Assembly: GCA_947588945.1 (NCBI GenBank)
Contig: CANPZY010000002.1
Location: 29,592 to 93,591 of the forward strand
Length of the DNA: 64,000 nucleotides
DNA from: an uncultured Clostridia bacterium
Lineage (GTDB): Bacteria; Bacillota; Clostridia; TANB77; CAG-508
Reading direction: 5' to 3'
The notes under the pieces are model-generated. The model was not told the origin of the DNA and ran no database searches. It worked only from the letters and a program-made list of their open reading frames with translations. Of this stretch, positions 13,328 to 52,182 are shown piece after piece; position 1 is the stretch's first letter, and the number at the start of each line of letters is the position of its first letter. The position numbers were made by a program, and so were the translations under genes.

Positions 13328-13518
13328 TTAGAAAATAATTATATAGTAAAAAAATGCATAAAACTTTTTATGCATTTTTTTTACTAATTTAATACTATAA
13401 TGTAGGTGTTACTATTTCTGATGAAAAAATAAAATCGATTAAAAAGAAATATACAAATCCTTGAAAAAATATATAAAAGATGATATTTTATATATAAAAA
13501 TATAGGAGGATAAAAGTA

Positions 13519-15948: not shown

Positions 15949-16034
15949 TAGTATATTATTTTAGTAATTATTATTTATAACAAAAAGGTCATAGGCGACA
16001 CCATAAGCCTAAATACATAAAAAGGAATATAACA

Positions 16035-17009: not shown

Positions 17010-17115
17010 TAAAATATAATTTATAAATAAAAATTCTATAAAAGCTGTAAACTTTTATAGAATTTTTTATTTGAAATAATATTTTTTATAAAAAGCTAAG
17101 ATAAATAAAATTTAA

Positions 17116-17139
17116 GGTCAAGTGAAAAAGTAAATGCAA
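17116..17139 (+). repeat. copy 1 of a 24-nt intergenic motif GGTCAAGTGAAAAAGTAAATGCAA
   Basis: Identical 24-mer also at 26761; near-identical at 47778 and 56569; all intergenic. Confidence 0.6.
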
Positions 17140-17248
17140 CTTGTAAGAGAAAATAAAATTTAATAGTTATTTTTTTATAAAATAATTGAAAATAAAATAA
17201 AATGTTTATATAATATAAGAAAAAATACAGATAAAGAAGGAGAAAAAA

Positions 17249-18091
17249 ATGGCAGTAATAATTGATGGAAAAATGCTAGCAAAAGAAATAAGATTGAACT
17301 TAAAAAAACAAGTTGAAAAAGAAAATTTAAAGCCAAAATTAGCTGTAATATTATGTGGGGAGGATCCGGCATCTAAGGTATATGTACGTAATAAAAGTAA
17401 AGCTTGTGATGAGGTTGGAATAGAATTTAAAGAATATTTACTTCCAAATGAAACTACTCAGGAGGAATTAATAAGTTTAATAGACAAACTAAATAAAGAT
17501 AAAAAAGTAGATGGAATTTTATTACAGAGTCCTATCCCAAAAGGATTAAATATACAAGAAGCATTTGAAAGAATTTTACCAGAAAAAGATGTAGATGGAT
17601 TTAATCCATATAATGTAGGAAAATTAGCAATAGGTGAAGATGGTTTTGTTCCTTGCACTCCGCTTGGAATAATAAAAATGTTTGAAAAATATAAAATAGA
17701 TTTAGAAGGAAAAAAAGCTGTTGTTGTTGGAAGAAGCAATATAGTTGGAAAGCCAATGGCACAATGCTTGCTTTCAAAACATGCCACAGTTACAATTTGC
17801 CATTCGAGAACTAAAGAATTAGAAAAAGAATTAAAAGATGCGGACATAGTAGTTTCTGCAGTTGGAAAAAGAAATATTATAAAAGAGGATATGATAAAAA
17901 AAGGTGCAGTCGTAATTGATGTTGGTATGAATGTAAACGAAAAGGGAAAATTATGCGGAGATGTTGATTTTGAAAATATATCAAAAAAAGCATCATATAT
18001 AACACCAGTACCTGGTGGAGTTGGACCTATGACTATAGCTATGCTTATGAATAATGTCATTAAAGCACATAAAATAAAAATGAAAAAATAA
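17249..18091 (+). CDS. folD: bifunctional methylenetetrahydrofolate dehydrogenase/cyclohydrolase
   Basis: MAVIIDGKMLAKEIR..., motifs YVRNKSKAC and VVGRSNIVGKPMA. Confidence 0.9.
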   Translation: MAVIIDGKMLAKEIRLNLKKQVEKENLKPKLAVILCGEDPASKVYVRNKSKACDEVGIEFKEYLLPNETTQEELISLIDKLNKDKKVDGILLQSPIPKGLNIQEAFERILPEKDVDGFNPYNVGKLAIGEDGFVPCTPLGIIKMFEKYKIDLEGKKAVVVGRSNIVGKPMAQCLLSKHATVTICHSRTKELEKELKDADIVVSAVGKRNIIKEDMIKKGAVVIDVGMNVNEKGKLCGDVDFENISKKASYITPVPGGVGPMTIAMLMNNVIKAHKIKMKK

Positions 18092-27209: not shown

Positions 27210-28394
27210 ATGAGAAAAGTAAATTATAAGGAAAAAGGAATCACATTAATAGCATTAGTAGTAACAATCATAATATTACTAATATTAGCAGGAGTAACAC
27301 TAACAACAGCATTGAGTCAAAATGGATTATTTCAAAGGGCAAAGATAGCAGGAGAAAAATATAAAGAATCAGAAGAAGATGAGACAGAAAAATTAAGGGA
27401 AGTAGAAAAAGAGATAGATAAAATAATAAATGGAGAAACTCCACCAGACCTACCAAATCCTCCAACGCCACCATCAGGCGGAATAGGAAGTAGTGACATA
27501 GCAGGAAATTTAAAAGAATATCAAGGAAAATATGTAGACATAGGTGTGGATATAAATGGAAATGAAAGTACAGCGGATGATTGGGAATTATTTTATGCAA
27601 CAGATGATAGAATATTTTTAATAGCAGCAGATTGTGTGCCAGTAACCAAACTAGGAGAGTGGAAGGTGATAGGAGAGAACGCAACAAATACTAATGGTTT
27701 CCAACAAGATTCTAGCAATACATATGATGTTTACTGGCCGAGTGGTCCTACGGCATTCTTAACTTTGCCAACAATAGACAACTTTTTGAAGACAGTAATG
27801 CATGAAGAATTTGATTTGTATCTAGTTAAGAAAAAATATAGTGGGATGGCGGTATCACAATTATTAAATACAAACGTATGGGATGAAATAAAAAATGAAG
27901 CAGATAAGGTGCATCCAGATTGTGTAGACTTTGCAATCGGAGGACCAACATTAGAGATGTGGTGTGCAGCATGGAATGAGGCAGTAGGAACAGATGATGC
28001 TACATTTAAACAAATACAACCAGACGGTTCTGGTGAAAATGGATATTGTGTAGGATGTACTGCAACGGGTAAGACTGAACAAAATAGTTTATATATGGAT
28101 GGAAATACGAGTGGACTAGAAAGTAATTTAACAACATTAGGAAATGATTATAAAACATTTTTCCCACACGTTGGCAGTGCTAAGTTGGGTGGAAGTTTGG
28201 GATATTGGTTGGCTTCGCCTTCCTCTGGCCACCTCGTTATGTCCTTGATGAGTGTCCGCTATGACGGCCGCGTGACCTACGCCGACTATAACGTCATCGG
28301 CTTTGGGGTTCGTCCGGTAGTTTCTCTACGATCTGGAGTCCAAATAGTAGAGAGGGCAGAACCGAAGAACATATACGACTTGGCGACTGAGTAA
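27210..28394 (+). CDS. secreted pilin-like protein P4 with a C-terminal DUF1566/C-type-lectin-fold domain that carries a DGR variable repeat
   Basis: Leader MRKVNYKEKGITLIALVVTIIILLILAGV, Pro-rich linker PPDLPNPPTPPSGG, then a C-terminus ...GYWLASPSSGHLVMSLMSVRYDGRVTYADYNVIGFGVRPVVSL whose DNA (28207..28325) matches the AAC-rich template repeat at 28824..28939 apart from substitutions at template adenines. Confidence 0.75.
   Translation: MRKVNYKEKGITLIALVVTIIILLILAGVTLTTALSQNGLFQRAKIAGEKYKESEEDETEKLREVEKEIDKIINGETPPDLPNPPTPPSGGIGSSDIAGNLKEYQGKYVDIGVDINGNESTADDWELFYATDDRIFLIAADCVPVTKLGEWKVIGENATNTNGFQQDSSNTYDVYWPSGPTAFLTLPTIDNFLKTVMHEEFDLYLVKKKYSGMAVSQLLNTNVWDEIKNEADKVHPDCVDFAIGGPTLEMWCAAWNEAVGTDDATFKQIQPDGSGENGYCVGCTATGKTEQNSLYMDGNTSGLESNLTTLGNDYKTFFPHVGSAKLGGSLGYWLASPSSGHLVMSLMSVRYDGRVTYADYNVIGFGVRPVVSLRSGVQIVERAEPKNIYDLATE
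28207..28325 (+). repeat. DGR variable repeat (VR) at the 3' end of P4
   Basis: A 17-nt identical 5' anchor (ggttggcttcgccttcc) and a shared 3' end (gggggttcg.ccggtag.ttct). In an 81-nt cleanly aligned stretch, about 16 of 19 mismatches fall where the TR has A (AAC versus GGC/CGC/GAC/TAC/GCC/GTC/ATC). Confidence 0.7.
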
Positions 28395-29227: not shown

Positions 29228-29803
29228 TCAATACCGAGAATAATATAAGTATCTTTTCTTCTTTAATCTTCTGTTTACGGTTCTATATTTTGCATATCTA
29301 CCACGACTATTTCTACCAACAAAAATAAAATTATTTGTATTTTTAAAAATCCTTGTTTTTCTATTTAATTTTAATCCATCTTTTTCTAAAAATATTTTTA
29401 ATTGTTCTAAGCAATATTTTAAGTATGATTTAGATTGATGAAAAAGTAAGAAATCATCTTGATATCTGACATAATACTTTATTTTTAGTTCTTCTTTTAT
29501 AAAATGATCCATATCATTTAAGTAAAATATAGCTAAAACTTGGCTTGTCATATTACCGATACTAAGGCCTTCATCATCACTATCAATTATATTAAATACT
29601 ATATTTAGTGCATCTTTGTCTTTTATTCTAGTTTTTAACTTCTTTTTTAAAATATCATGGTCAATACTTGCAAAGAATTTACTTATATCTGCTTTTAAAA
29701 TATAATAATCTTTATATTTTATTTTACATTTTGGTAAAAAGATGGAGATAAGAAAATGGAGAGAATTTATATAAACAGAGAATGTTGTATAGCCTACACT
29801 GTA
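29228..29803 (-). pseudogene. DGR-type reverse transcriptase, 5'-truncated (fingers motifs 1-2 missing), opposite strand to the TR
   Basis: Minus-strand open frame ...YILKADISKFFASIDHDILKKKLKTRIKDKDALNIVFNIIDSDDEGLSIGNMTSQVLAIFYLNDMDHFIKEELKIKYYVRYQDDFLLFHQS...LKLNRKTRIFKNTNNFIFVG shows RT motifs 3/A, B, C (YxDD as RYQDDF) and the thumb. A stop lies 5' of the KADISKFF region and no RT-like sequence is found further upstream in any frame. Confidence 0.75.
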
Positions 29804-32332: not shown

Positions 32333-33592
<1,260 letters not shown>

Positions 33593-34592: not shown

Positions 34593-34800
34593 AGATTAAA
34601 CCTCCTTAATTAAAACTAAAATAATTATATCATATTTTTAGCAAAAAATAAAGAGTTTTTTGTAATATTACGAGATAATATTACAAAAAAATTACAGATA
34701 TATTAAATTATAGAAACAATGAGAAAATTTATTGCTTAAAAAAGGTAAAAGTTATAAAATGAAAAAGATTAATAAATAATTATTTAGGGAGGATTATAAA

Positions 34801-35757
34801 ATGGCAACATTAAATCCATTAGAGAAAAAGGCACGTTCATCTTTTATAAAAGGATTATTAATTTCAGGACTTATAGGAGTAATAATAATAGCATTATTGG
34901 TATTATGGATATTTAAATTAAATGGACAAGAGAAAGAAAGGATAGCAGCCCAAAAAACAGTAGTAGTCTTAAAGGCAGAAGTAAAATCAGGAGAAGAAAT
35001 AACTTCTGATATGTTATCAACTCAACTAGCAAATGCAGAGGTAGCAACATCTGGAGCTATAACAATGGGACAATTCAGCGAATTATCTGAAATTACAGAT
35101 GAAGCAGGAAATTTAATTCCAGTTAAAGTTTTAGCAAAAATTGATATTCCAGCAAAAAGTATATTAACTGCAGATATGATTTCAACTGAAGAAGAGGTTG
35201 TTACAGATGACTTAAGAGAGCAAGAATATAATATGATAGTGCCAATTACAAACCTAGAAAGTGGAGATACAATAGATATAAGGCTTAGATTACCTAGTGG
35301 AGAAGATTATATAGTTATTTCAAAGAAGAAAGTAACACTAACTGATTTAGGAGGAGTGTATTCAACAGAAACATTACTACTAAATGTTACAGAAGAAGAA
35401 ATCTTAACAATGAGTGCAGCAATAGTTGACGCATATCAAATATCGGGAAGTAAATTATATGCAACTAAATATACTGATCCTGGACTTCAAGGAAAAGCAT
35501 CTTCGACTTATGTACCATCACAAGCAACAGTAAGGTTAGTAGATACAGATCCTAATATACTTTCAACTGCAAGAAATGAATTAATTAATAGATATAATAA
35601 TACTTATTCACAATATAGACAGGGTGTAAATGATGCTTTGGGCGCAATTGATGAATCAATTAAATCATCTGGAATACAATCAAATACTGAGTCAGAAATT
35701 GCAACACAAGAAGCAGAAAGAAAAACGTATCTTGAATCAGTTTATGGGGTAGAATAA
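34801..35757 (+). CDS. CpaB/RcpC-like (SAF-domain) pilus assembly protein, tentative
   Basis: Single N-terminal TM, then a beta-rich region with a VVLKAEVKSGEEITSDML segment resembling the SAF domain of CpaB; heads the Tad-like locus. Confidence 0.4.
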   Translation: MATLNPLEKKARSSFIKGLLISGLIGVIIIALLVLWIFKLNGQEKERIAAQKTVVVLKAEVKSGEEITSDMLSTQLANAEVATSGAITMGQFSELSEITDEAGNLIPVKVLAKIDIPAKSILTADMISTEEEVVTDDLREQEYNMIVPITNLESGDTIDIRLRLPSGEDYIVISKKKVTLTDLGGVYSTETLLLNVTEEEILTMSAAIVDAYQISGSKLYATKYTDPGLQGKASSTYVPSQATVRLVDTDPNILSTARNELINRYNNTYSQYRQGVNDALGAIDESIKSSGIQSNTESEIATQEAERKTYLESVYGVE

Positions 35758-35786
35758 TATTATAAATATAGAAAGGATAGATAAAA

Positions 35787-36470
35787 TTGGAGCAAATAGG
35801 ATTTATTGGAACTTATGATAAAAAAGACTTACTTCTTAACATTGCTAGAGTATTAATGAATTTTAATAAAAAAGTTTTAATAGTTGATGCAACAACTACG
35901 CAAAGATTAAGATATGTTGTTCCAAGAATTGAAAATGCACAAGGAAACACTTATATAAGTGAATATATAGAGATTGATGTAGCATTGGGATTTATGAATT
36001 ATAATGGGATAATGCAATATTTAGGGCATGGATTAAACTATGACATAATCTTAGTTGACACAGATAATATCCAAACCTTCAATTCATTTATGCTACCTAA
36101 TTCTGCAAAGAACTTTTTTGTAACATCTTATGACGAATATGAATTACAAAGAGGATTAGAAGTTTTTAGATTCCTACAACAACAGATGGAAATATATAAA
36201 GTTATATATTCAGCAAATATTAACAACAAAGAAGATGATTATCTAAATCATTTAGTTGAAGGAACTAATGTTACATGGAAAAAAGAGAAAGTTGAATTTG
36301 CAGACACAATTAATGATAGAAAGGCTACGTTAGAAAACCAATTAACCAAAGACATTATATTAAAAAATTATACATCAACTTATAAAGACAGTTTAGAATA
36401 TTTAATTTCATTAATGGTTGGTGAATACATCAATCAATCAGACATAAGAAGAATGATAAAAAAAATGTAG
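35787..36470 (+). CDS. degenerate ParA/MinD-fold protein (CpaE/TadZ-like), TTG start
   Basis: GFIGTYDKKDLLLNIARVL...LIVDATT: P-loop-like fold without a canonical Walker A. Confidence 0.35.
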   Translation: MEQIGFIGTYDKKDLLLNIARVLMNFNKKVLIVDATTTQRLRYVVPRIENAQGNTYISEYIEIDVALGFMNYNGIMQYLGHGLNYDIILVDTDNIQTFNSFMLPNSAKNFFVTSYDEYELQRGLEVFRFLQQQMEIYKVIYSANINNKEDDYLNHLVEGTNVTWKKEKVEFADTINDRKATLENQLTKDIILKNYTSTYKDSLEYLISLMVGEYINQSDIRRMIKKM

Positions 36471-36488
36471 AAAGGACTTAATTAAAAA

Positions 36489-37334
36489 ATGTCAATTATA
36501 ACATTTGTAAATAAAGACATGAAAGAGAGTGGACAAACACTTTCAGTTGCTGCAATTGCAACACTCATGGCTATAGAACATAATTATAGAATACTAGTTA
36601 TTTCTACAGATTTTAATGATAAAACAATGGAAGAATGTTATTTTAATAGCACAGGTGGAAAATTTAGAAATCCTTATTCAAAGTCACTTAATGCAGATAT
36701 TGCAAATGGACTAGAAGGGTTAATAAGAATGTTCGCAAGTAATAGGGCGGATAAAGAAGTCATTAGAAGCTATACAAGGCCTATTTTAAAAGATAGATTA
36801 GATATTTTGCAACCACCAAAAACTACAGATTTTAAGGAATATTTAAACATTTCAACATATTTTTCACAAATAGCAGATGTAGCAAATACAGCATATGACA
36901 TGGTCTTAGTAGATTTATCAAATAAAGTTCCTGAAGAAAATGCTAGAAAACTTATGGATATTTCTTCGCTAGTAGTTGTAGGACTTAACCAAAATATGAA
37001 ATCTATGATAAATTTTGAACTTCTAAAAAAAGAAGATGAATTTTATAGAAGAACCAATGTATTAATAATTATTGGAAAATATAATCTACATTCTAAATAT
37101 ACTGCAAAAAATATAGGAAGATTCTTAAAAGAAAAAAACGTTCCTATTGTAGTACCATATAGCATACTTTTTGCAGATAATTGCTCAGATGGAAAAATTT
37201 TAGATTACTTTTTATCATTACAGACTTTAGGAAGTGGGAATACTAAAAATTTATATTTTTGTTCACAGGTTAGAGAAGCTGTTGAAAAAATAGATTATTT
37301 AAGACAAGCATATGAATTTGGACTAAATAAATAA
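36489..37334 (+). CDS. degenerate ParA/MinD-fold protein (CpaE/TadZ-like)
   Basis: ITFVNKDMKESGQTLSVAAIATLMA...ILVISTD: same fold, non-canonical P-loop. Confidence 0.35.
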   Translation: MSIITFVNKDMKESGQTLSVAAIATLMAIEHNYRILVISTDFNDKTMEECYFNSTGGKFRNPYSKSLNADIANGLEGLIRMFASNRADKEVIRSYTRPILKDRLDILQPPKTTDFKEYLNISTYFSQIADVANTAYDMVLVDLSNKVPEENARKLMDISSLVVVGLNQNMKSMINFELLKKEDEFYRRTNVLIIIGKYNLHSKYTAKNIGRFLKEKNVPIVVPYSILFADNCSDGKILDYFLSLQTLGSGNTKNLYFCSQVREAVEKIDYLRQAYEFGLNK

Positions 37335-37390
37335 TAATACTTAAGATAAATAAAAAAACAAACAGAGGGAGAAAGGAGCATTACGAAATT

Positions 37391-39302
37391 ATGTTAGTCA
37401 ACCTTATAATTATTGCAGTAATTTTATTTGCAATTTATGCATTAATAAAAAGAAACATAAAAAAGACTCAAGATGCAGAAGTAGAGGAAAATGTTGTTGT
37501 TGATGATAAAACATATACTTTAGAAATGATGATGAATTTCATTAAAAAGAGACTAGATGAAATTACTAAAGTAAACCTTTACGATTTAGGTCTTTCAGAA
37601 GAAGAGTTAAAAAGAAGAAAGAATAAAAAATATGAGTTAAAAAAGGCCTTAAAAGGTTGTACATATGGAGACGTTAATGATAAAAAATATGTAAAAGAGC
37701 TTATATTTGATTTACTTATTAAAGAATATGGAGTTGATGAAACTAATGTATCAAAAGCAATACCATTTGATGTTCCATCTCTTTTAACTCCACAAGATAA
37801 ATTTGATATAATAATTTTTATGTATAAAAAAGACTTTGGATATGAAGCTCTAACCCAACTTATAAAAAAATATCACTTAGCAGAACTTAAATATACATCA
37901 GGAGATGCAAAACCATCATATGTTATTACTCCAGAAGAAATAAGTGATATTTATGAAAAAGAAAACTTTAATTTAACATTTGAAGATAAATTAATGGTAG
38001 TTGTACAAAGAATATACCAAAGATATAAGGGATATAGTTCAATAGATGAAGTAAGAGATATGAATATAGATGGTGTATCTGGTGGTGTATCTGGATTACC
38101 AGAAAGCTTCTTAAGCCAGGTTGCACAAACAGACAGTAGTTACTTAAACCAAGTTATGGATCATAAAGTTCCTCGTGCTTGTGATAGTATATGGATATTC
38201 TTCCAAGGTAAATCAATACGTTTAGCATTTCTATCATTTGGAACAGAAGCAGAATTAAAAAGAGTTTGCCAGAATATTTACAAATATAATAACCCAGGAC
38301 AATTATCAGACACAAATGGTTATAAAATCAATGAAATGAAAGATGGTTCTCGTGTCGTAGTTGTAAGACCATCATTCTCAGAAACATGGGCATTCTTCGT
38401 AAGAAAGTTCGACGTAAAGAGAGCAACACTAGAACAGTTAATTACAATACCAGGAAAAGAAGATACAATAGATTTATTAAAATACTTAGTAAAAGGAGCA
38501 AGAATTATATCACTTACTGGTGAGCAGGGTTGTGGTAAAACAACAATGCTTATGGGTATGATAGAAAATATATATGAAACAATGAACATTCGTGTTCAGG
38601 AAACTGCATTCGAGCTTCACTTAAGAAAAATATATCCAACTAGAAATATACTTACATTTAGAGAAACAGATACAATTTCAGGACAACAAGGTCTTGATGT
38701 TCAAAAGAAAACCGATGGTTCTGTAAACATAATTCGGAGAGGTTGCAACAGACCCCGTAGCATCTTGGATGATTCAAGCTGCCCAGGTTGCATCTAAATT
38801 TACATTATTTACTCACCACGCTAAGACATTTCCAAACTTAGTTACAGCATTAAGAAACTCAATGCTTAGAAATGGTGACTTCACTAATGAAATTGTTGCA
38901 GCAGAACAGGTTGTACAAGTTCTTAACTTTGATATACATTTAGTTAAAGACTTTAAAGGAAACAGATATATTGAAAGAATTACAGAATGTATCCCACTAG
39001 AAGATGTAAATGACTATACATTTGACCATCAAAAAGAGAAAACATTAGAAGGAAAATTTGAAAAATTTGTTGATAATACAACTAGATATTATACTAAGGA
39101 AACAAACAAAGAATTATTTAAATATGTAAATATTCTTGAATATCAAGATGGTGCCTATGTTATTACAAATAAAATATCAGACCATAACTTACAAGAAATG
39201 TTACTTAATATGGATGATACTGATGCTACTGCATTTAAAGAGTTTGTTAGTAGAAAATGGGGCGTTAGATTTAATGATATAGGACAAGTTGTAAAGAACT
39301 AA
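37391..39302 (+). pseudogene. membrane-anchored VirB11/CpaF-family secretion ATPase, +1 frameshift (extra C at 38735)
   Basis: N-terminal TM; Walker A LTGEQGCGKTTMLMGM; ...TDGSVNII then frame loss. The +1 frame continues GEVATDPVASWMIQAAQVASKFTLFTHHAKT, which parallels CpaF [31 protein letters not shown]. Removing C38735 (attCgga) restores one frame. Confidence 0.75.
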
Positions 39303-39345
39303 AAAATATAAAAATAATTAAAGATAAGGAGGTGGAGCTTTAAAA

Positions 39346-41419
39346 GTGAGCACAAATGTATTAATAATTTTTGTTCGGAATAGCTGCAATATTATTATTT
39401 GGAATAGTATTCTTGTACCTTGGATTAAAGAAAAGAATGAGAAATGAAGACGTAATGAGAATAGAAAAACTTAGAAAAGGTACAGAAGAGAAAAGCTTTT
39501 CTAGTGATGTATTCTATCAAAAATTATATATAAAATTTTTAAAGACTCCATTTATAAAAAGATATTTATTAAAAATAAGGCGTAGACTTGAAATAAATAA
39601 CTTAGACGATGAATTTATTACAAGACAAGATAGTGCTAAAATTGTATTTAAAGCATTACTTATTATCATTCCATTAACTATACTAGTAATTGTTATTACA
39701 AATAAAAACTTATTATTAATGTCTATAATACTTGTATTTGAATTATTTATAGTAGACTCATTTTCTGATGGAATGGTAGATAAATTAGATAATAACCTAT
39801 TAATACAACAAATTGACTTTTTTGCATCAATGAGACATGCTTATCATGAAACAAATATGGTTGGAGAAGCAATTTATTCAACTGCTCAAGATACAGAAAA
39901 TGTTGAAATGTCAAGACAAGCAGAAAAAATTTATGAAATATTAAATTCACAAGACCCAGAAACAGAACTTGAAAAATATTATGATATTGCACCAAATAAC
40001 TATATAAAAGAATTTGCTGGAATTTCATATTTAACTCAAGAGTTTGGTGATAGAAGAGTTGATGGAGCTTCACTTTATTTAAAAAACTTAGAAAATATTA
40101 CGCAAGAAATGCAGATTGAAATATTAAAAAGGGATAAATTAAATTATACATTTCAAAGTTTATCAGTAATATCAATTATTCCAATGCTTTTATTAGAGCC
40201 ACTTAAGAGTTGGGCTATATCAAATTTCTCATTTACAAAAAACTTTTATGAGGGCAAACAAGGTCTAATAGTACAAATACTTATTATGCTTGCAACCTTT
40301 ATTTGTTATATTTTAATAAGAAAATTAAAAGATAATGGTTCAGTAAAAAAGGTACAAGATGAACAAAATCCTTGGCAAGCAAAATTATATGAAAAACCAT
40401 TTGTGAAAAAGTTTGTAGATCAATTTATTCCTAAAGAAGGAACAAAAGAGCGTAGAAAATTAAGAAATTTACTTAAAGATTCAGCATCTAAAACAAAAAT
40501 TGAATGGCTTTATATTAATAGAATTTTAATTACTATTGCAGTATTTTTAGGGTCTCTGATATTCTTTTTTGCATTACATAAAATTCAAATTAATTATATT
40601 TATACTCAGCCAACAACTGATTATGATCTGATAGGTGAGATGTCAGCTAAAGAAACTGTTACAGCTATGGCGAAAACAAAAATGCATAATGCAATACTTG
40701 ACAAAATGAAGGGAAATAGGCATGCAACTTTAGATGATGTTATAAAAACAATGAAAAAATCAAAAGAGTATAAAGATGCATCAGAAGAAGATATTGAAAA
40801 AGAGGCACCTACTATTTTAGAAAAATTGCAAACAATTAATTCAGAATATTTGCAATGGTTTGAAGTATTAATGGCAACTTTATTTTCACTTATTGGATAT
40901 GCATCTCCAATATTACTATTGAAATTCCAAGTAAGAATGAGACAGATGGATATGGAAGATGAAGTTATGCAATTCCAGACTATTATCATGATGCTAATGA
41001 GACTAGAGAGAGTTGACGTTGAGATGATTCTAGAATGGCTTGGAAGATATGCCGATATATTTAGAGAACCAATAAATAAATGTTTAAATAACTATGAAAG
41101 TGGTGCATGGGAAGCATTAGAAGAAATGAAAGAAGATGTATCATATCAAGAGTTTATAAGAATAATAGAAAGCTTGCAAACAGCAGTAGAAAAAGTTCCA
41201 ATAAAAGAAGCATTTGATGAACTTGATGCTGATAGAGATTATTATAGAGACAAGAGAAAAGAATCAAATGAAAGATTAATTAAGAGAAAAGGTATGATAG
41301 GAAAAGCAATTGGATTTACACCTATGGTATTAGTATTTGTTGGATATCTAGTTGTTCCACTTGTATTAATAGGAATGACGAGTATGTCATCATCATTCGA
41401 TTCAATGTCTAATCTATAA
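39346..41419 (+). pseudogene. large polytopic membrane protein (fused TadB/TadC, GspF-like, tentative), +1 frameshift 30 nt after a GTG start (extra C at 39376)
   Basis: RBS AAGGAGGTG sits 8 nt before GTG 39346; that frame stops after 33 codons, while the 682-aa ORF continues in the +1 frame from gttCgga; deleting C39376 joins VSTNVLIIFV-GIAAILLFGIV... Confidence 0.5.
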
Positions 41420-41478
41420 TAATATTAAATAAATCAATTCTATAAAAAATATTGATTGTATTGTGAAAGGAAACAATA

Positions 41479-42024
41479 ATGGAAAATGCATCTAAGGCAA
41501 TAATAATGGCTGGAGGAATACTAATTGCTCTACTTGTTGTATCTACACTAATAATTGGCTGGAATAGAATAACAGATTATCAAAGAGTAGAGGAAGAAAG
41601 TGAAACATTAGAGCAATTAGCTAAATTTAATAAAGAATTTGAATCATATAATAAAGGTGTTGTTAGAGGCTATGAACTTATTTCTTTATTTAATTTAGCA
41701 CAAGATACTAATGAAAGATATAGTGAAGATGAAGGATTTAAAAATTTAGAAGTATTTGTGAAATTTTTAAAAAATACTACAGTTGTTATCAATAGTGGAG
41801 ATGAAAAAGCACAAAAAAAGCTTACAGCAGGTTATATAGATTTATCAGTTTTTATAAAAGACTATTATAATTATTCTATTGAACATGGACAAACAGATTA
41901 TTCAAAAATATTTAAAGAATCATATTTTCAATGTGATAGAACTGAATATGATGGAGAAGTTGAAGGAAAAGGATCAGGAAGAATCCAAAAGCTTTACTTC
42001 ACTCAAATAGAGAGAATAAATTAA
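41479..42024 (+). CDS. putative (pseudo)pilin-like secreted protein, paralog 1 (leader MENASKAIIMAGGILI)
   Basis: Conserved N-terminal MENASKA(L/I)I(I/M)AG plus a hydrophobic helix shared by four adjacent genes. Confidence 0.45.
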   Translation: MENASKAIIMAGGILIALLVVSTLIIGWNRITDYQRVEEESETLEQLAKFNKEFESYNKGVVRGYELISLFNLAQDTNERYSEDEGFKNLEVFVKFLKNTTVVINSGDEKAQKKLTAGYIDLSVFIKDYYNYSIEHGQTDYSKIFKESYFQCDRTEYDGEVEGKGSGRIQKLYFTQIERIN

Positions 42025-42078
42025 ACTTTCTAGAAAATATAAAATTTACCAAGTAAAATAAAAATTGGAGGAAGATAA

Positions 42079-42648
42079 ATGGAAAATGCCTCAAAAGCTC
42101 TGATTATTGCAGGGGAAGTATTAATAGGCATAATGGTACTAACTTTAATGATATATATTTTTAGTGCATTTGGAAATTTTTCTTCTAATATGCATGAAAG
42201 TATGGTAAAATCACAAATAGCACAATTTAATGAAAACTTTTTTACTTATGAAAATAGAACTAATATTACAGCAACAGAAATTGTAACAATAATTAATTTT
42301 GCAAAGCAATCAAACGATTCTAGAGAATTAACAAGAAATGAAAGAACTTCAGAATACTATGTAAGAGTATTTATAGATGATGTAGATGTATTTAATAATA
42401 CAAAATACATATCTAATGATTATGACTATAATGAAGGATTAACAGAAGTTTTAAATAATTTTATAAAAAATAATAATACGAGCTACTTTAGTTGTAATGC
42501 TTCCCTTGAAAAAAAAGGAGATAATTTGCAAGTAAATTACGATAAATATACAAATGATATTGTTGTACAAGAAAAAACAGGTTTAGTTAATGAAATACAC
42601 TTTCATAAAATAGATGAAAATATTATCTCTATTCCAAAAAGTTTTTAA
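42079..42648 (+). CDS. putative (pseudo)pilin-like protein, paralog 2 (MENASKALIIAGEVLI)
   Basis: Same leader. Confidence 0.45.
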   Translation: MENASKALIIAGEVLIGIMVLTLMIYIFSAFGNFSSNMHESMVKSQIAQFNENFFTYENRTNITATEIVTIINFAKQSNDSRELTRNERTSEYYVRVFIDDVDVFNNTKYISNDYDYNEGLTEVLNNFIKNNNTSYFSCNASLEKKGDNLQVNYDKYTNDIVVQEKTGLVNEIHFHKIDENIISIPKSF

Positions 42649-42699
42649 ATTAAATTATTGCATTTAAAAATTTTTAATGATATAATTAAAGGGATTTTT

Positions 42700-43125
42700 A
42701 TGAAGAAAATATCAATAATTATTTTATGTATAATAGCAATTATTTCAGGCGTAGCTTATGGATTTGCCAATTATAAAGCTAAACAAGGTGAAAGAAATAT
42801 AAATAATTCAATATATGCTAATTTATATGAAAAAGATATAAATGGAAATGATTTAGCAACAATAATAAATAAAACACTTGATAATAATGAAAAAAATAAT
42901 ATAGAAAAAGATGAAAATGGTATATATAAAGATAACAACAAAAATTCAATAAAAATAGAAATAAAATTTAAACAAAGTGATAATATAATATCAATAGAAA
43001 AAATTTATAATAGTAAAATTTCTAGGTTTATTGAACTTTATGGACAAGTTATGTTTAAATGTACAAAAATAGAATATCATACAAAAACTAAATTAGTGAA
43101 ATACTTATATTTTGAAGAAATTTAA
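42700..43125 (+). CDS. small secreted protein with signal peptide (MKKISIIILCIIAIISGVAYG)
   Basis: Start chosen at the internal ATG with a signal-peptide-like N-terminus. Confidence 0.35.
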   Translation: MKKISIIILCIIAIISGVAYGFANYKAKQGERNINNSIYANLYEKDINGNDLATIINKTLDNNEKNNIEKDENGIYKDNNKNSIKIEIKFKQSDNIISIEKIYNSKISRFIELYGQVMFKCTKIEYHTKTKLVKYLYFEEI

Positions 43126-43217
43126 ATTTAGATATTAAGTTTTGTCTTACTAAAGACGAATTATAAAATGATAAAATATCATATAATTTTTAATAATCAA
43201 AGGAGGAAATTTTTAAT

Positions 43218-43691
43218 ATGGAAAATGCGTCAAAAGCTTTAATTATAGCAGGAGCAATTTTAATTTCAATTTTACTTATAGGATTAGGAGTAGGTGTTTA
43301 TCAAATGGCAGCAGGAACTACAAAAAGTGCTAACCTAGATTCAAAAGCAGCACAAGCACAAAATAGTCAATTTGAAGATTTGTTTGGAGCAAGAAAATCA
43401 GCTGCAGATGTAAAAAATCTTATGACATTAGTTAGAAATAATAATATTACTGGAAATACAAAAGATGAGCAAGTAGAAATTCATGTTCTTTACAATGGTA
43501 CAGAGAGTACTCCTTCAGGGGTATCAAAATTGGTAAAGGCAGGTAAAACATATTGGGTTAATGTAGAAAATGATAATGCTTGGGATGGAAAAGGTGACGA
43601 TGAATCAATTACTAAAGATTCAGAAGCATATTATGACACAGGATATCTTAGAGTAATAAGTATTTATGAAGGAGAACATGAATCGGAGTAA
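43218..43691 (+). CDS. putative (pseudo)pilin-like protein, paralog 3 (MENASKALIIAGAILI)
   Basis: Same leader; RBS AGGAGG. Confidence 0.45.
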   Translation: MENASKALIIAGAILISILLIGLGVGVYQMAAGTTKSANLDSKAAQAQNSQFEDLFGARKSAADVKNLMTLVRNNNITGNTKDEQVEIHVLYNGTESTPSGVSKLVKAGKTYWVNVENDNAWDGKGDDESITKDSEAYYDTGYLRVISIYEGEHESE

Positions 43692-43719
43692 TAATAATGC
43701 TTTTTAGAGGAGCTTAATT

Positions 43720-44544
43720 ATGGAGAATGCAACAGATGCGTTAAAGATGGCGGCAGCAATATTAATTTTCATTGGTGCACTTTCATTAGCATTGATTGGT
43801 TTTACAAGAGCAACGCAAACTGCAGGAAGTGTACTATCTAAGTCAAAAGTAGAATATTATAATACTGAAAATATTAGAGTATCAGAGAATAGAATAGTTG
43901 GTATTGAAACGATTATACCAACTCTATATTCGTATTTTAAAGAAGGTTATACAATAGTTTTTTATAGAGGGTCTGTTGATGAAAATAATGATTTAGTATC
44001 AAATATATCACCACTTACGCTTTATTATTCAGAAGCACTTCCATCAAGATTAGTATTATCAACACTTAGGAATGAAGGCGATGTCTCATATAGAGCAACT
44101 CAGGATGGAAAGAATATTTCAAGAGCAATATATGGAATAGATGCAAATGACGAAGATACAAGACAAGAGCCATGGCTACATGACGAAATACACGCTAAAT
44201 ATTTTATACAATCATTAATAAATAATACACCAGAAATGTCAAAATATGATATGTCTAGAAAAAAATCTGTAGCTATAAATAAACAAGAAGACAATAAATT
44301 AACATTAAATTTTGATTTTAATGGAGGATTAATAAATAGATTAGGATCAAGCATTTCAAATGCCAAAGATGCTATGTTTATTGAAAGAATTGGTACTTAT
44401 AATCAAGTAATATACGATGGAGATCAAACGGCATCAGTTGATAGTTCAATTATTGAATTTTCAAATAATGAAGTTATGCAAAATAATGAGGGAACACAAA
44501 AGAGAGTTATCCAATATATTTATATAGGAAATAAAACAAGATAG
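43720..44544 (+). CDS. putative (pseudo)pilin-like protein, paralog 4 (MENATDALKMAAAILI)
   Basis: Related leader. Confidence 0.4.
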   Translation: MENATDALKMAAAILIFIGALSLALIGFTRATQTAGSVLSKSKVEYYNTENIRVSENRIVGIETIIPTLYSYFKEGYTIVFYRGSVDENNDLVSNISPLTLYYSEALPSRLVLSTLRNEGDVSYRATQDGKNISRAIYGIDANDEDTRQEPWLHDEIHAKYFIQSLINNTPEMSKYDMSRKKSVAINKQEDNKLTLNFDFNGGLINRLGSSISNAKDAMFIERIGTYNQVIYDGDQTASVDSSIIEFSNNEVMQNNEGTQKRVIQYIYIGNKTR

Positions 44545-44596
44545 TTTTAAAAAAGATAACAAAAAATATTTATAGATGTAAAAATAGGAGGTTCTT

Positions 44597-45118
44597 ATGA
44601 ATGATTCAGTTATGACTGTTTTAGCAATATTTTTAGCAGCAATATTAATGTTTATATTTCCTTTAATGTCTACTGCTGATAGAAGTGATGATATTTCACA
44701 ACAAATAGTACAAGCTGAAACAACAGAATTTGTTGATAAAATTAGGTCAACAGGAAAAATAACAAATGATAATTATGAAGCTTATAGTCAAGCAGTAACA
44801 GCAACAGGAAATTCATTTGAAATAGAAATGCAAGCTTCAATTCTAGATGAAAATTCTAATAAAAAGACAACACAAGCATCTGCACAAAAAGTTGGAGAAA
44901 ATTATTCTTATAGTGAATATACTTCTCAAATCTTAGATAAAATTGAAAATGAAGGTCAATATAAATTAAAAGCAGGAGACTTTGTATCTGTTTCTGTAAA
45001 AAATACAAACAAAACAATTTCACAGATACTTAAAAACTTTATGTATAGAGTTACAGGAAATGATAATTATGTAATTGCAGCAAGACATTTTGGAACAGTT
45101 AATGTTACAGCTAATTAG
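44597..45118 (+). CDS. N-terminally hydrophobic small protein (MNDSVMTVLAIFLAAILMFIFPL)
   Basis: Fifth small leader-bearing protein in the locus; RBS AGGAGG. Confidence 0.4.
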   Translation: MNDSVMTVLAIFLAAILMFIFPLMSTADRSDDISQQIVQAETTEFVDKIRSTGKITNDNYEAYSQAVTATGNSFEIEMQASILDENSNKKTTQASAQKVGENYSYSEYTSQILDKIENEGQYKLKAGDFVSVSVKNTNKTISQILKNFMYRVTGNDNYVIAARHFGTVNVTAN

Positions 45119-45130: not shown

Positions 45131-45213
45131 ATCGCATAATTTTAGTAAAATAATTGAAAAAAAATAGATTGCATAATTTTAATCAAAAAAAAATAGATTA
45201 CATAATTTTAGTC
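45131..45213 (+). repeat. tandem direct repeats (2.5 x ~28 bp) upstream of spoIVB
   Basis: atcgcataattttagtaaaataattg / aaaaaaaatagattgcataattttaatc / aaaaaaaaatagattacataattttagtc. Confidence 0.6.
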
Positions 45214-45355
45214 AAGTAAATAAAAATAAAAAAGATGGTTATTATAATTATATAATAACTATTTTTTTATGCACTTTAAATCAATCTTTTCATAAAAAAA
45301 TTGATTAGTATCTAAAATGTATAATTATGAAAAAAGTTTTCTAATTTGAAGGAGA

Positions 45356-48003: not shown

Positions 48004-49191
48004 ATGGATAAAAAAACTGTTAAAGATTTAAATGTAGTAGGAAAGAAAGTGCTAGTAAGATGCGACTTTAATGTGCCATTAAATGAAAACAAGGAGATTA
48101 CTGATAAAACTAGAATTATAGCGGCACTTCCAACAATAAAATATTTATTAGAGAATAATGCAAAGGTTATTTTATGTTCACATTTAGGTAGACCAAAAGG
48201 TGAATTTAATATGGATTATTCACTAGAGCCAGTGGCAAGAGAGCTATCTAATCAATTAGGAATGAATGTACCTTTAGCAAAAGATGTTACAGGTGACAGT
48301 GCAAAAGAACTTGCGCAAAATCTAAAAGAAGGAGAAGCAATGCTTCTTGAAAATGTTAGATTTGATCCAAGAGAGGAAAAAAATGATGATACTTTAAGTC
48401 AAGAGTTTGCTTCACTTGCAGAGTTATATGTAAATGATGCATTTGGAACTTGCCATAGAGCACACTCATCAACAGCTGGAGTTGCAAAATTTTTACCATC
48501 TGCTTGTGGATTTTTAATTGAAAAAGAATTAGAACATTTAGGTGGTGCTTTAAATAATCCAAAAAGACCATTTGTAGCTATTTTAGGTGGTAAAAAAGTA
48601 TCAGATAAAATAGGAGTTATAGATAATTTATTAGAAAAAGTTGATACTCTTCTAATTGGTGGAGGAATGGCATATACATTTTTTAAAGCAAAAGGTTACA
48701 ACATAGGAAACTCAATTTGTGAAGATGATAAACTAGATTTAGCAATGAGTTTACTAAAAAAGGCAGAAGAAAAAGGTGTAAAAATGCTTTTACCTGTTGA
48801 TAATGCAATAGGAAAAGAATTTGACAATAATACAGAAAAGATGGTAGTAAAATCAAATGAAATTCCAGATGGATGGCAAGGATTTGATATAGGACCTGAA
48901 ACAATTAAGCTTTATGAGGAAGAGTTAAAAAATGCTAAGACAATATTATGGAATGGACCTATTGGAGTATTTGAATTAGAAAAATTTGCAGTTGGTACAA
49001 ATGAGATAGCTAATTTCTTAGCTAATCTAAATGATTGTACAACAATAATTGGTGGAGGAGATTCTGCTGCTGCAATTACAAAAGCAGGTCTAGCAGATAA
49101 AATGACTCATATATCAACAGGTGGAGGAGCTTCTTTAGAGTTTATTGAGGGAAAAGTTTTGCCAGGAATTGAATGTATAGAGAACAAATAA
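48004..49191 (+). CDS. pgk: phosphoglycerate kinase
   Basis: [11 protein letters not shown], the GG..SDKI... hinge, and other conserved motifs. Confidence 0.95.
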
Positions 49192-49329
49192 TATATATAT
49201 AGAAATTTATATAAAAGTAAAAAATAACTAAGGTTAAGGCAAATATATAAAGTTTATAAAAGTTCCTATAGGATAAAAAATAAAATAAAAAAAGATGTAT
49301 TTTAAATAAATATATACAAGGAGAAAAAT

Positions 49330-50073
49330 ATGAGAAGAAAAGTAATGGCTGGAAATTGGAAAATGAATATGCTACCTAATGAAGCAATAAAATTTATAGG
49401 AGACTTAACTCCATTAGTAAAGGATTCAAAACCAGAAGTAATTATATGTGCACCATTTACTGATTTGTTTTATACATTACTTAGTTGTCAAGATACTAAT
49501 ATTCATGTAGGAGCACAAAATATGCACTGGAAAGAATCAGGAGCATATACTGGTGAAATTTCAGCAGAAATGTTAAAAGTAATAAATGTTGAATATGTAA
49601 TAATAGGACATTCAGAAAGAAGGCAATATTTCAATGAAACAGATGAAACTGTTAATTTAAAAGTAAAATCAGCACTTAAAAATGGCCTAAAACCAATAGT
49701 TTGTGTAGGTGAAACTTTAGAGCAAAAAGAAGCAGGAAAAACTATAGAAGTAATTACATCACAGACTGCAAAAGCACTAGAAGGCTTGACAATAGAAGAT
49801 TTAAATAATACAATTATTGCGTACGAGCCAATATGGGCAATTGGTACAGGAAAAACAGCAACATCAGAAGATGCAAATGAAAGTATAAAAGAAATTAGAA
49901 AAGAAGTTCTAAATAAGTTTGGAACAGATGATATAACGATACTATACGGTGGAAGCGTTAAAAAAGAAAATGCAAAGGAATTATTTACGACATCAGATAT
50001 AGATGGCGGATTAGTTGGTGGAGCGAGTTTAGATGCAGACACATTTAGTAAAATTGTTAATTATGATTTGTAA
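49330..50073 (+). CDS. tpiA: triose-phosphate isomerase
   Basis: AGNWKMN, IIGHSERR, AYEPIWAIGTG. Confidence 0.95.
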   Translation: MRRKVMAGNWKMNMLPNEAIKFIGDLTPLVKDSKPEVIICAPFTDLFYTLLSCQDTNIHVGAQNMHWKESGAYTGEISAEMLKVINVEYVIIGHSERRQYFNETDETVNLKVKSALKNGLKPIVCVGETLEQKEAGKTIEVITSQTAKALEGLTIEDLNNTIIAYEPIWAIGTGKTATSEDANESIKEIRKEVLNKFGTDDITILYGGSVKKENAKELFTTSDIDGGLVGGASLDADTFSKIVNYDL

Positions 50074-50094
50074 ATAAAAAGAAAGAAGGAAAAA

Positions 50095-51627
50095 ATGAGT
50101 AAAGAACTTACGATGTTGGTAATATTAGATGGCTTTGGTAAAAATCCAGATAAAGAAGGAAATGCCATAGCAAATGCAACAAAGCCAAATATTGATAAGC
50201 TAATGATGGATTATCCAACAGCAGAAATACAAGCAAGTGGAAGAGCAGTAGGACTTCCAGAAGGTCAAATGGGAAATTCAGAGGTTGGTCATACAAATAT
50301 TGGAGCAGGAAGAATTGTATATCAAGATTTGACTAGAATCACAAAATCAATAGAAGATGGAGATTTTTTCAGTATACCAGAATTAGTAGAAGCAGTAGAA
50401 AATTGTATAAAAAATGGAACTAAACTTCATATTATGGGCTTAGTATCTGATGGCGGAGTTCATAGTCATGAAAGACATTTATATGGATTACTTGAGCTTG
50501 CTAAAAGAAAAGGTCTAGAGAATGTTTTTGTACATTGTTTTATGGATGGAAGAGATACTTTGCCAGCATCAGGCGAAGGTTATATTATGAAACTAGAAGA
50601 AAAAATGGAAGAAAAAGGAGTAGGAAAAATAGCATCAATTTCTGGTAGATTTTATAGTATGGATAGAGATAAAAGATGGCAAAGGACTCAAAAGTGCTAT
50701 GATGCATTAGTATATGGAAAAGGAGAAAGAGCTTCATCTGCAGTTCAAGCAATAGAAAGTTCATATCAAAAAGAAACATTTGATGAATTTGTTGAACCAA
50801 CTGTAATATATAGTGGAGAAAAGCCAGTTGCAACAATAGAAGATGGGGACTCAGTAATATTCTTTAACTTTAGACCAGATAGAGCAAGACAAATAACTAG
50901 AGCACTAGTAGATCCAGATTTTAATGAATTTGAAACAAAAAAATTAAAATTAAAATTTGTATGTATGACGCAATATGATGAAACAATGCCAAATGTTAAA
51001 GTTGCATTTAAACCGGAAGTTTTAAAAAATACATTTGGAGAATATATTAGTAAAAAAGGATTAAAACAATTAAGAATTGCAGAAACAGAAAAATATGCTC
51101 ATGTAACATTTTTCTTTAATGGTGGAGAAGAAAAGCAGTATAAGGGAGAAGATAGAATTTTAATACCATCTCCTAAAGTAGAAACTTATGATATGAAACC
51201 AGAAATGAGTGCTTATGAAGTAACTGATAAAGTAGTAGATGCAATTAATTCAGAAAAATACGATAGCATAATATTAAATTTTGCAAATCCAGATATGGTC
51301 GGACACACAGGAAGCTTAGAAGCAGCAGAAAGAGCAGTAGAAGCAATTGATGAATGTGTAGGAAAAATAATAAATGCATTATCAAAGCATAATGGAAAAG
51401 CATTAATTACAGCAGATCATGGAAATGCAGAACAAATGATAGATTATAAAACAGGTGAACCATTTACATCACATACAACAAATCCAGTTCCAATAATTTT
51501 ATATGGAATGGAAAATGTAAAAATAAAAGATGGTAAATTAGCAGACTTAGCACCTACAATGCTTGATATGATGGGATTAGAAAAACCAGAAGAAATGACA
51601 GGAGAAAGTTTGCTAGTAAGGGAGTAA
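50095..51627 (+). CDS. gpmI: 2,3-bisphosphoglycerate-independent phosphoglycerate mutase
   Basis: [28 protein letters not shown]. Confidence 0.95.
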
Positions 51628-51633: not shown

Positions 51634-52182
51634 TTGCAAAGATTAGATAGTAGAATATATAATGATATATATAATACACTGATAAATTTAATTCCTGAAA
51701 AATGGGAAAAAATATGTTTATATGCAACTGTTATAGGTGGATTAAAAGGGGAAATGTATTTTTACTATTTCCCCAAAAAATTAATAAAAACAAAACCAGT
51801 AAATTGTTATGAAATAGCAAATAGGTTTGGGTTAGATGAAAATACATATAACGAAGAGATTTCAAAATTATATACAAAAGTAAGGAATTTAAAACAATTA
51901 ATAAGACAAAATTGGACAAATGTAACAATTAGTGTTGATAAAAAGTTTTTTAATGCAGAATATCGCTTTGATAATCTTATAAATTCGAGATATAGTGATG
52001 AAGAAAGGCATTTAATATGGTGCTATAGATATTTAAATACACCAATAGAGAGTTTAAGTAAAAAAGATCAAAATTTGATTTTATCATATAAGGAAAATAG
52101 TAATATAAAACCTATAATATTTGTAGAGGAAATAACAAATTTGGAAAAGTTAGAAGTAAAGAATCCAATATTAAAAGTTTAA
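51634..52182 (+). CDS. YezG/DUF600-like immunity-type protein (orphan), TTG start
   Basis: NTLINLIPEKWEKICLYATVIGG...EMYFYYFP parallels the YezG-family IPEEWEKVYLYAEV...YFYY signature. Confidence 0.45.
   Translation: MQRLDSRIYNDIYNTLINLIPEKWEKICLYATVIGGLKGEMYFYYFPKKLIKTKPVNCYEIANRFGLDENTYNEEISKLYTKVRNLKQLIRQNWTNVTISVDKKFFNAEYRFDNLINSRYSDEERHLIWCYRYLNTPIESLSKKDQNLILSYKENSNIKPIIFVEEITNLEKLEVKNPILKV

Follow-up and report, generated by a model that had tools for sequence, protein, structure and literature searches.

The closest described counterpart of the locus analyzed here is a "pilus gene cluster" of 10 to 14 genes, reported from 122 of 129 TANB77 species (PMC11680825; Nat Commun 2024;15:10726). 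Its reference copy comprises proteins 927 to 938 of HRGM_Genome_2725 (CAG-245 sp000435175). Table 1 of that study assigns 927 (358 amino acids, aa) to CpaB, 928 (231 aa) and 929 (280 aa), both ParA-like (COG1192), to TadZ and CpaE, respectively, 930 (640 aa, with one transmembrane, or TM, helix) to TadA/CpaF, and 931 (693 aa, eight TM helices) to TadC in its first half and TadB in its second; 932 to 937 (165, 170, 143, 146, 237, and 178 aa) are listed with one TM helix or a signal peptide, the latter being the entry for 934, and with no homology. Protein 938 (621 aa), TadE/PilV-like in part, was called a "minor pilin" and stimulates dendritic cells via TLR4, by which the cluster was proposed to link TANB77 abundance to the anti-PD-1 response. 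With the exception of the ATPase, the cluster was described as essentially exclusive to TANB77. The main text is silent on a leader motif, a prepilin peptidase, a promoter, and sporulation (PMC11680825).

Here, we describe a stretch of 64,000 nucleotides (the window) from an uncultured Clostridia bacterium (assembly GCA_947588945.1, contig CANPZY010000002.1), in which an uninterrupted, tight run of genes occupies positions 34801 to 45118 of the + strand. The original prediction, made from the letters of this DNA, had read the run as genes for a CpaB-like protein, two ParA-like proteins, an ATPase, a polytopic membrane protein, and small proteins, and this order was confirmed. Judged by its sequence, the locus is one copy of the TANB77 pilus gene cluster and as such is already in the literature. 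By analogy with described systems, it would encode a highly diverged, monoderm Tad-type (type IVc-like) type IV filament machine, a reading to which we assign a probability of roughly 0.6. What is new is modest: the spread of the machine across Firmicutes, including cultivable hosts; a sharp N-terminal motif without a linked peptidase; a conserved promoter and operator; and defects at the level of the strain and of the clade.

The locus matches the TANB77 cluster gene for gene

The products of the run measure 318, 227, 281, 636 (with a frameshift repaired), 682, 181, 189, 141, 157, 274, and 173 aa, in parallel to proteins 927 to 937, with which they share gene order, near-identical sizes, and TM patterns. 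The window copy differs in that it lacks 938 and in that its ATPase gene is frameshifted. Given this gene-for-gene match, the Tad-like reading has to be regarded as already published (PMC11680825). The closest loci stem from uncultured Clostridia metagenome-assembled genomes (MAGs), Candidatus Merdicola, and Clostridium sp. CAG:575, with NCBI taxonomy going no further than "Clostridia incertae sedis," and a relative with 83% ATPase identity shows the same gene order plus a last gene of 542 to 564 aa. The GC content is about 27% over the whole sequence and does not change at the locus; like the contigs of 1.6 to 1.8 Mb that carry homologs, it would fit TANB77. When the window proteins were searched singly against Pfam and NCBIfam, almost nothing rose above the cutoff, which points to a very diverged system; for this reason, family-level alignments were used.

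Motor, accessory proteins, and platform

A profile built from 41 diverse members of the ATPase family and compared with the Protein Data Bank (PDB) matched CpaF (8rkd) with an E value of 1.8e-25, ahead of FlaI (5e-12), archaeal GspE (9e-12), and PilT (2e-10), so that the profile search proposed as a check of the CpaF-family assignment came out in its favor. The window protein taken singly reaches Pfam family T2SSE with an E value of 9e-4 (18.4 bits versus a cutoff of 24.9). Invariant among the 41 members are the glycine and lysine of Walker A, the glutamate of the "GE" motif, and the histidine of the His box. The Walker A sequence GEQGCGKTT, initially taken to be noncanonical, fits the canonical GxxxxGK[ST], and relatives read G.QG.GKTT. 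The N-terminal TM helix noted at the same time is a family trait, with a TM segment found in 93 of 110 members.

The proposed CpaB-like SAF protein is recognizable in the window only weakly (Pfam SAF, E = 8e-4; TIGR03177 pilus_cpaB, E = 3e-5; both below the cutoff), and SAF was matched in 21 of 31 homologs (best E value, 3.5e-14) and ChapFlgA in 15 of the 31. Compared with the PDB, its family profile found FlgA (4.6e-5) and RcpC (0.6). The two soluble ParA-like proteins of the window matched no Pfam family above the cutoff (there was one spurious subthreshold match), and the family profiles recovered MinD (4v02, E = 8.5e-6) for the first and a ParA-family protein (3ea0, E = 9.5e-6) for the second. 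As had been suggested, neither keeps a canonical P-loop: the Walker A consensus of the first family is G..DKSD, in which the second glycine is gone (only G8 and D34 are invariant), and that of the second is GQ.GTT, in which the Walker lysine is gone. Canonical TadZ carries an extra N-terminal receiver-like domain, for which both proteins are too short at 227 and 281 aa.

The polytopic protein, originally suspected of being a fused TadB/TadC, has seven hydrophobic segments according to a hydrophobicity scan. Its family profile found no sequence match in the PDB. In a Foldseek search, an AlphaFold2 (AF2) model of this protein (pLDDT 62, from a shallow input alignment of members with at least 70% identity) gave local matches to the cytoplasmic domains of EpsF/OutF, at a probability of up to 0.97 and E values above 1; several of these structures were superimposed with TM-scores of 0.60 to 0.64 and a root mean square deviation (rmsd) of 3.7 to 4.0 Å over about 120 columns. 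The model-based matches are consistent with the TadC/TadB assignment of the published cluster, and it is the structural homology reported there that supports the reading as a fused platform (PMC11680825).

Small proteins share a sharp N-terminal motif

Downstream of the platform gene lie six small proteins, which we name p1 to p6, and not five as first counted. The shared leader held for four of them: p1, p2, and p4 (181, 189, and 157 aa) start with an exact MENASKA, and p5 (274 aa) carries a variant that starts MENATDALKMAA. The exceptions are p6, whose hydrophobic N terminus begins with MNDSVMTVLAIF, and p3, which corresponds to 934 and is kept in TANB77-type loci only; the reading frame of p3 opens at a TTG at 42658, and the gene call in related locus L084 (related loci are designated by L numbers) is 141 aa. 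In loci from Paenibacillus, Tumebacillus, and Alkaliphilus, the place of p5 is taken by a counterpart of 128 to 131 aa. Of all the small proteins, p6 is the one best conserved across Firmicutes, with phmmer matches in almost all of 80 loci and E values down to 1e-24 in distant hosts; its family has no PDB sequence match.

The family start motif can be written as M-x-N-[AS]-x-K-A-[LI]. A search for M.N[ASTG].[KR][AG][LIVM] returned 100 open reading frames (ORFs) close behind the platform gene, spread over 51 of 80 loci; of the roughly 7,450 other ORFs, only 2 carry the pattern. In the 100 ORFs, N3 and A7 are present in 100%, position 6 is lysine (96%) or arginine (4%), and position 8 is L, I, or V in 100%. 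For p4 we found 6,724 homologs, with no Pfam domain in any of the 120 best matches listed, and the residues M1, E2, N3, A4, S5, K6, A7, and L8 are invariant in 68 sequences. Outside TANB77, the gene after the platform gene begins with MGNAQKALVMAAG in Paenibacillus and Tumebacillus, MDNSVKAILIGAS in Alkaliphilus, MENATKAIIIGAS in Peptococcaceae, and MNNAQSALKVAAG in other Paenibacillus. A "leaderless pilin" in which Glu2 would play a role was considered and rejected, as the second residue is G, D, or S in loci beyond TANB77.

Archaeal class III signals follow the rule [KR][GA] before a hydrophobic helix. The K-A before [LI] in the small proteins fits this archaeal-type layout, in which the motif would place Lys or Arg at -2, a small residue at -1, and a hydrophobic residue at +1. 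Among p4 homologs there are also weak, subthreshold Pfam matches to the archaeal N-terminal families SoxE_N, DUF515, and DUF7288. The AF2 model of p4 (pLDDT 76.5) consists of an N-terminal helix (residues 2 to 33), a weak linker, and an alpha/beta domain.

A proposed diverged Tad-type machine and its alternatives

Taken together by analogy, these parts suggest the following machine. A hexameric CpaF-like ATPase, tethered by its own N-terminal TM helix, would drive a fused TadC- plus TadB-like platform; the CpaB-like SAF protein would form an extracytoplasmic collar, and the two catalytically degenerate ParA/MinD-like proteins may position or scaffold the assembly. Its substrates would be the cluster's own bitopic small proteins, pulled from the membrane by the N-terminal hydrophobic helix and stacked into a fiber or a short pseudopilus. 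Candidates for the major subunit are p4 and p2, and for minor subunits p5 and p6, with 938 as a putative tip protein in most species that was lost in the clade of the window. We infer that the subunits are either processed by an unlinked A24 peptidase or recognized directly by their unprocessed N terminus.

With Tad/Flp/Cpa systems, the locus shares a CpaF-clade ATPase, a SAF-containing CpaB-like protein, ParA/MinD-like analogues of TadZ/CpaE with defective Walker A motifs, a platform with a putative GspF-like cytoplasmic domain (seen locally in a low-confidence model), and small, N-terminally hydrophobic proteins encoded downstream. However, the ATPase here has its own TM anchor and an N-terminal extension of about 260 aa, the presumed TadB and TadC parts are fused and not seen by Pfam T2SSF, and there are two short ParA-like proteins. 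Moreover, instead of a Flp-type pilin there are subunits of 130 to 270 aa with globular domains, Pfam TadE gave no signal in 32 p6 homologs, the TadE-like 938 is gone, there is no TadV in the locus, and a secretin is lacking, which is normal for a monoderm. Archaeal type IV pili (Epd, Aap, and Ups, whose subunits are substrates of PibD/FlaK/EppA) share the K-A-then-[LI] layout, the lack of a glutamate at +5, and the weak family matches of p4 homologs noted above, whereas the ATPase here is far more CpaF-like, with a score of 92 bits for this bacterial protein and of 48 bits for FlaI or archaeal GspE, all hosts found are Firmicutes, and any cleavage is putative. The features that the original prediction had put together, namely, an unusual machine resembling Tad/CpaF, ParA proteins of the TadZ kind, and a platform that may be fused, are those of the published cluster (PMC11680825), and the ATPase profile agrees with them.

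Several observations weigh against a filament machine of this kind. On the side of the motor and platform, the ATPase gene is broken in the window strain, Pfam T2SSF matched none of 33 platform homologs, the two platform halves show no detectable repeat in hhalign (probability, 0.9%), and the platform model is of low confidence. On the side of the subunits, the p4 model has no significant fold match in the PDB (best Foldseek E value, 0.64), and its helix is parted from the globular domain by a low-confidence linker, which is not the long alpha-1 helix of a pilin. Pilin Pfam domains were found in none of 68 p4 homologs and none of 32 p6 homologs. The Flp motif G/XXXXEY is absent from all six small proteins, as predicted, and there is no glutamate at +5; since Glu2 of MENASKA is not conserved beyond TANB77, it is no stand-in for Glu5 of pilins. 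The missing prepilin peptidase, noted for the locus from the start, is a wider pattern: Peptidase_A24 had no match among the window ORFs scanned, and none of 83 related loci has a hydrophobic ORF with the A24 motif G.GD.K within 10 kb, which leaves processing of the small proteins unsupported. Finally, we know of no filament ever seen for this cluster, whose TANB77 hosts are uncultured. The idea that the small proteins are pilins thus draws on context and topology and is unproven.

These points feed the most serious alternative, which we nevertheless consider unlikely: that the locus encodes a Tad-derived membrane complex that builds no pilus, in which the MxNAxKA proteins stay as bitopic proteins of the membrane/wall zone or form a short, piston-like pseudopilus, and which serves secretion, DNA uptake, or envelope remodeling rather than adhesion. 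The missing pilin signals and linked peptidase would be expected of such a complex, as would globular domains of 130 to 250 aa, far above the size of Flp pilins, and a membrane-tethered ATPase, which is atypical of pilus extension motors. Tad-like and Com systems in monoderms can also serve DNA uptake. However, paralogous subunits followed by p5, p6, and 938 in a fixed order mirror the layout of major plus minor pilins, and the near-invariant N terminus argues for a specific, pilin-like recognition. No candidate genes for secreted cargo or for DNA translocation, such as ComEA or ComEC, were seen beside the loci inspected, where N termini were viewed without a profile search.

It had also been suggested that the machine handles four large paralogs encoded elsewhere in the window, P1 to P4, and their assembly or export by it appears very improbable to us. 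The proteins have PilD-type N termini (KG-then-ITLIALV, with alanine instead of glutamate at +5) with subthreshold matches to Pfam N_methyl, and no other type IV filament machinery was found among the ORFs scanned in the window; P-like genes also occur near the cluster in two other loci, L049 and L021. However, these two are the only such cases outside the window: the machine and its own small proteins go together in many genomes that have no P1-P4-like gene within 10 kb, and in the window the genes in question lie 7 to 28 kb away amid unrelated housekeeping genes. Furthermore, prepilins of the G-then-[FIV]TLI type are usually served by PilB/PilC or ComG systems and not by CpaF-type ones. The N termini of P1 to P4 would imply a PilD/ComC-type peptidase elsewhere in the genome. 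One of the four has a weak, subthreshold FGE-sulfatase-like match at its C terminus (E = 6e-4).

Table 1. Features of the pilus gene cluster, its control region, and the P1 to P4 genes in the window
Feature	Position	Strand	Description
ATATTACA-like boxes, four	34665-34708	+	Starts at 34665, 34678, 34689, and 34700; spacing, 13, 11, and 11 bp
Sigma-A/sigma-70-type promoter	34732-34760	+	-35 TTGCTT, 17-nt spacer, -10 TAAAAT
Ribosome-binding site	34787-34792	+	GGGAGG, after the promoter
CpaB/RcpC-like bitopic protein, 318 aa	34801-35757	+	TM helix at residues 19-37 plus SAF domain; corresponds to 927
ParA/MinD-fold protein 1, TadZ-like, 227 aa	35787-36470	+	Degenerate Walker A; corresponds to 928
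ParA/MinD-fold protein 2, CpaE-like, 281 aa	36489-37334	+	No Walker lysine; corresponds to 929
CpaF/TadA-family ATPase	37391-39302	+	N-terminal TM helix, ~260-aa N-terminal extension; +1-base insertion near 38735
Polytopic membrane protein, 682 aa from TTG start	39371-41419	+	Presumed TadC-like plus TadB-like platform; corresponds to 931
p1, one-TM protein, 181 aa	41479-42024	+	N terminus MENASKAIIMAGG
p2, one-TM protein, 189 aa	42079-42648	+	N terminus MENASKALIIAGE
p3, 141 aa from ATG	42700-43125	+	Signal-peptide-like N terminus MKKISIIILCIIAIISG (MKKISIIILC), no MENASKA; corresponds to 934
p4, one-TM protein, 157 aa	43218-43691	+	N terminus MENASKALIIAGA; candidate major subunit
p5, one-TM protein, 274 aa	43720-44544	+	Variant N terminus MENATDALKMAAAILIF
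p6, one-TM protein, 173 aa	44597-45118	+	Hydrophobic N terminus MNDSVMTVLAIFLAAILMFIFPL
Intrinsic-terminator-like hairpin plus U-run	45229-45268	+	Between the cluster and spoIVB
P1-P4, four large paralogs, 394-632 aa	6128-7606, 8164-9756, 11429-13327, 27210-28394		N terminus M(R/K)KVNYKEKG-then-ITLIALVITIIILLILAGVT

Conserved promoter, operator-like repeats, and the spoIVB neighborhood

To judge the promoter from one sequence is uninformative in DNA this rich in A and T (27% GC), where a scan returned 80 sites versus 88 expected. When 18 upstream regions of TANB77-type loci were aligned, the -35 element (TTGATT-like) had an invariant TTG and the -10 element (TAAAAT) an invariant T, A, A, and T, the spacer was 17 nt, and a GGAGG ribosome-binding site followed. 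The same alignment contains two ATATTACA boxes whose TTAC core never varies, plus one or two degenerate boxes, about 11 bp apart. In the window, the two-box pattern (up to two mismatches) occurs 3 times versus 0.62 expected, and two of the three matches fall in the upstream region of the operon. From their sequence and placement, the boxes are probably direct repeats bound by a regulator upstream of the promoter. At the other end of the run, the hairpin has a folding energy of -15 kcal/mol (z score, -6.9; 0 of 200 shuffles as good), and an equivalent is found in L023 (z score, -5.6). We thus picture a sigma-A-type promoter that would read the operon under a regulator binding the 11-bp-spaced repeats, with termination before spoIVB. 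Two adjacent direct copies of AAAAATAGATT(G/A)CATAATTTTA(A/G)TCAA lie at 45160 to 45215, after the last cluster gene and ahead of the hairpin.

As the original prediction had pointed out, the locus lies directly upstream of spoIVB, which starts at 45356 (Peptidase_S55, E = 4.5e-79), and this had been taken as a hint of a link to sporulation. The adjacency recurs in at least 18 TANB77-type loci, and many of the named Firmicutes hosts recovered belong to endospore-forming genera. However, none of the distant hosts, among them Paenibacillus, Cohnella, Tumebacillus, and Alkaliphilus, has spoIVB within 10 kb of the cluster, and the TANB77 loci are syntenic on either side of it (HAD or SPFH, cluster, spoIVB, murC), with spoIVB inverted in L075. 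We therefore read the adjacency as lineage synteny and not as functional coupling. The terminator parts the operon from spoIVB, and the conserved promoter, TTGATT-17-TAAAAT, is sigma-A-like and matches none of the consensus sequences of sigma-E, -F, -G, or -K; what marks a sporulation-specific operon, that is, a promoter for a sporulation sigma factor and a host-wide linkage to sporulation genes, was not found. A forespore or mother-cell envelope machine coregulated with spoIVB is thus the least probable of the functions considered. A mobile element or type IV secretion system (T4SS) was rejected, given the conserved chromosomal synteny and the lack of a relaxase, VirB4, or VirD4 among the window ORFs scanned.

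In Firmicutes, gap and pgk-tpi-gpmI, which are genes of glycolysis, usually form one contiguous block. In the window, gap (32447 to 33592) and pgk-tpi-gpmI (48004 to 51627) are about 14 kb apart, with the SPFH gene, the cluster, spoIVB, and rpe between them. In L023, L041, and L043, spoIVB is followed by murC and not by rpe-pgk as in the window, which indicates a local rearrangement in the window genome. Three further genes were noted in passing: an ORF of 107 aa on the - strand (29228 to 29551; RVT_1, E = 2e-7), which resembles part of a reverse transcriptase of the group II intron or retron type; a YezG-like immunity protein (51634 to 52182; E = 6e-21) just after gpmI; and a sortase gene that runs to the window end (63309 to 63986). 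The latter two are not related to the cluster.

A frameshifted motor and a clade-level loss of 938

The single ATPase ORF of 640 aa first reported does not exist in the window. Rather, the reading frame is split into two ORFs, 37391 to 38797 (468 aa) and 38769 to 39302 (177 aa), by an insertion of one base just ahead of the "GE" of Walker B. The window reads AACATAATTCGGAGAGG where relatives have AACATCATCGGTGAGG, and 12 relatives read AACATCA-TCGGTGAGG at this site. Deletion of one base near 38735 restores an ATPase of 636 aa, the best solved relative of which is CpaF (E = 1e-7). An identical insertion is found in L084 and L085, which come from two other assemblies and different samples. These comparisons indicate that the frameshift is real, and its recent origin is indicated by the substitutions of the window lineage in this gene, 44 of which are synonymous versus 10 nonsynonymous, with similar ratios in the other cluster genes. 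As the reading frame is lost immediately ahead of the Walker B glutamate, the window strain probably has an inactive machine. Intact homologs (633 to 650 aa, 81 to 94% identity) are abundant in gut metagenomes, some of them on contigs of 1.6 to 1.8 Mb.

A second conserved gene of the window, radA/sms (13519 to 14890), also seems to be interrupted: an N-terminal ORF of 295 aa stops at 14406, and the conserved continuation (..GTAIVCSLEGTRPLLVELQAL..) is in another frame from about 14390, with an ORF of 104 aa at 14576 to 14890. With two frameshifted conserved genes, the window holds either several real frameshifts or indel errors of the assembly.

Searches of the whole window by phmmer and tblastn revealed no homolog of 938. 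This large terminal protein of the cluster (about 540 to 620 aa) has one TM segment and a TadE/PilV-like N-terminal quarter; it is present in most other loci and absent from the closest ones, L023, L041, and L043. Since these closest relatives share the loss and have intact ATPases, the absence of 938 is, on this comparison, a clade-level trait and by itself no sign of decay.

The machine extends beyond TANB77

An exhaustive search yielded full-length, long-form ATPases in 370 clusters at 50% identity (E values below 1e-30; 32 to 54% identity to the query). Species-representative genomes were then scanned with an alignment of 11 ATPase sequences, and hosts of the machine included many Paenibacillus species along with Cohnella, Tumebacillus, and Marinicrinis, numerous Clostridia MAGs, and also Alkaliphilus, Thermoclostridium, Peptococcaceae, Vallitalea, Pseudoflavonifractor capillosus, and Anaerocolumna. 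Every host recovered belongs to Firmicutes. The order of the genes for the CpaB-like protein, both ParA-like proteins, ATPase, platform, p6, and a 938-like protein is kept in Paenibacillus, Cohnella, Tumebacillus, Alkaliphilus, Thermoclostridium, and Peptococcaceae, and the 938-like gene of distant hosts encodes 320 to 350 aa. Thus, whereas the cluster without its ATPase had been called essentially exclusive to TANB77, the whole machine is found here in other Firmicutes.

More-diverged versions occur at 8000 to 17800 of the loci from Pseudoflavonifractor capillosus (L006), Vallitalea (L004), and Anaerocolumna (L007 and L008). They encode four to six small one-TM proteins with differing N termini (MGDDLSTGAKIGIGLVIL and MEGEMGTGARIAIALIVL), and phmmer searches with the window proteins failed to pick up most of their ParA-like genes, with one weak match in L004. 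The sequences of these loci suggest several subtypes within the machine family.

It is tempting to speculate, although we hold this view tentatively, that the TANB77 cluster is one branch of an undescribed, Firmicutes-wide class of type IV filament systems. Such a class would combine a CpaF-like motor anchored in the membrane with a fused platform, a pair of dead ParA-like proteins, and subunits with a seven-residue leader, M-x-N-A-x-K-A, which would either serve as an archaeal-style class III signal for an unlinked peptidase or act without a peptidase. If this were true, the system could lie close to the root at which the Tad lineage passes from archaea to bacteria, and cultivable Paenibacillus would offer hosts for its direct study.

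Given the published link to the anti-PD-1 response, the function of the cluster, and the question of which strains hold a working copy, has practical weight. The loss of 938 in some TANB77 lineages and a broken motor in at least one strain are both relevant to the use of the cluster as a biomarker. Finally, unlike the uncultured TANB77, cultivable Paenibacillus, Tumebacillus, and Alkaliphilus carry the machine, and in these hosts it can be tested whether a fiber is built and how the unusual subunits are recognized.

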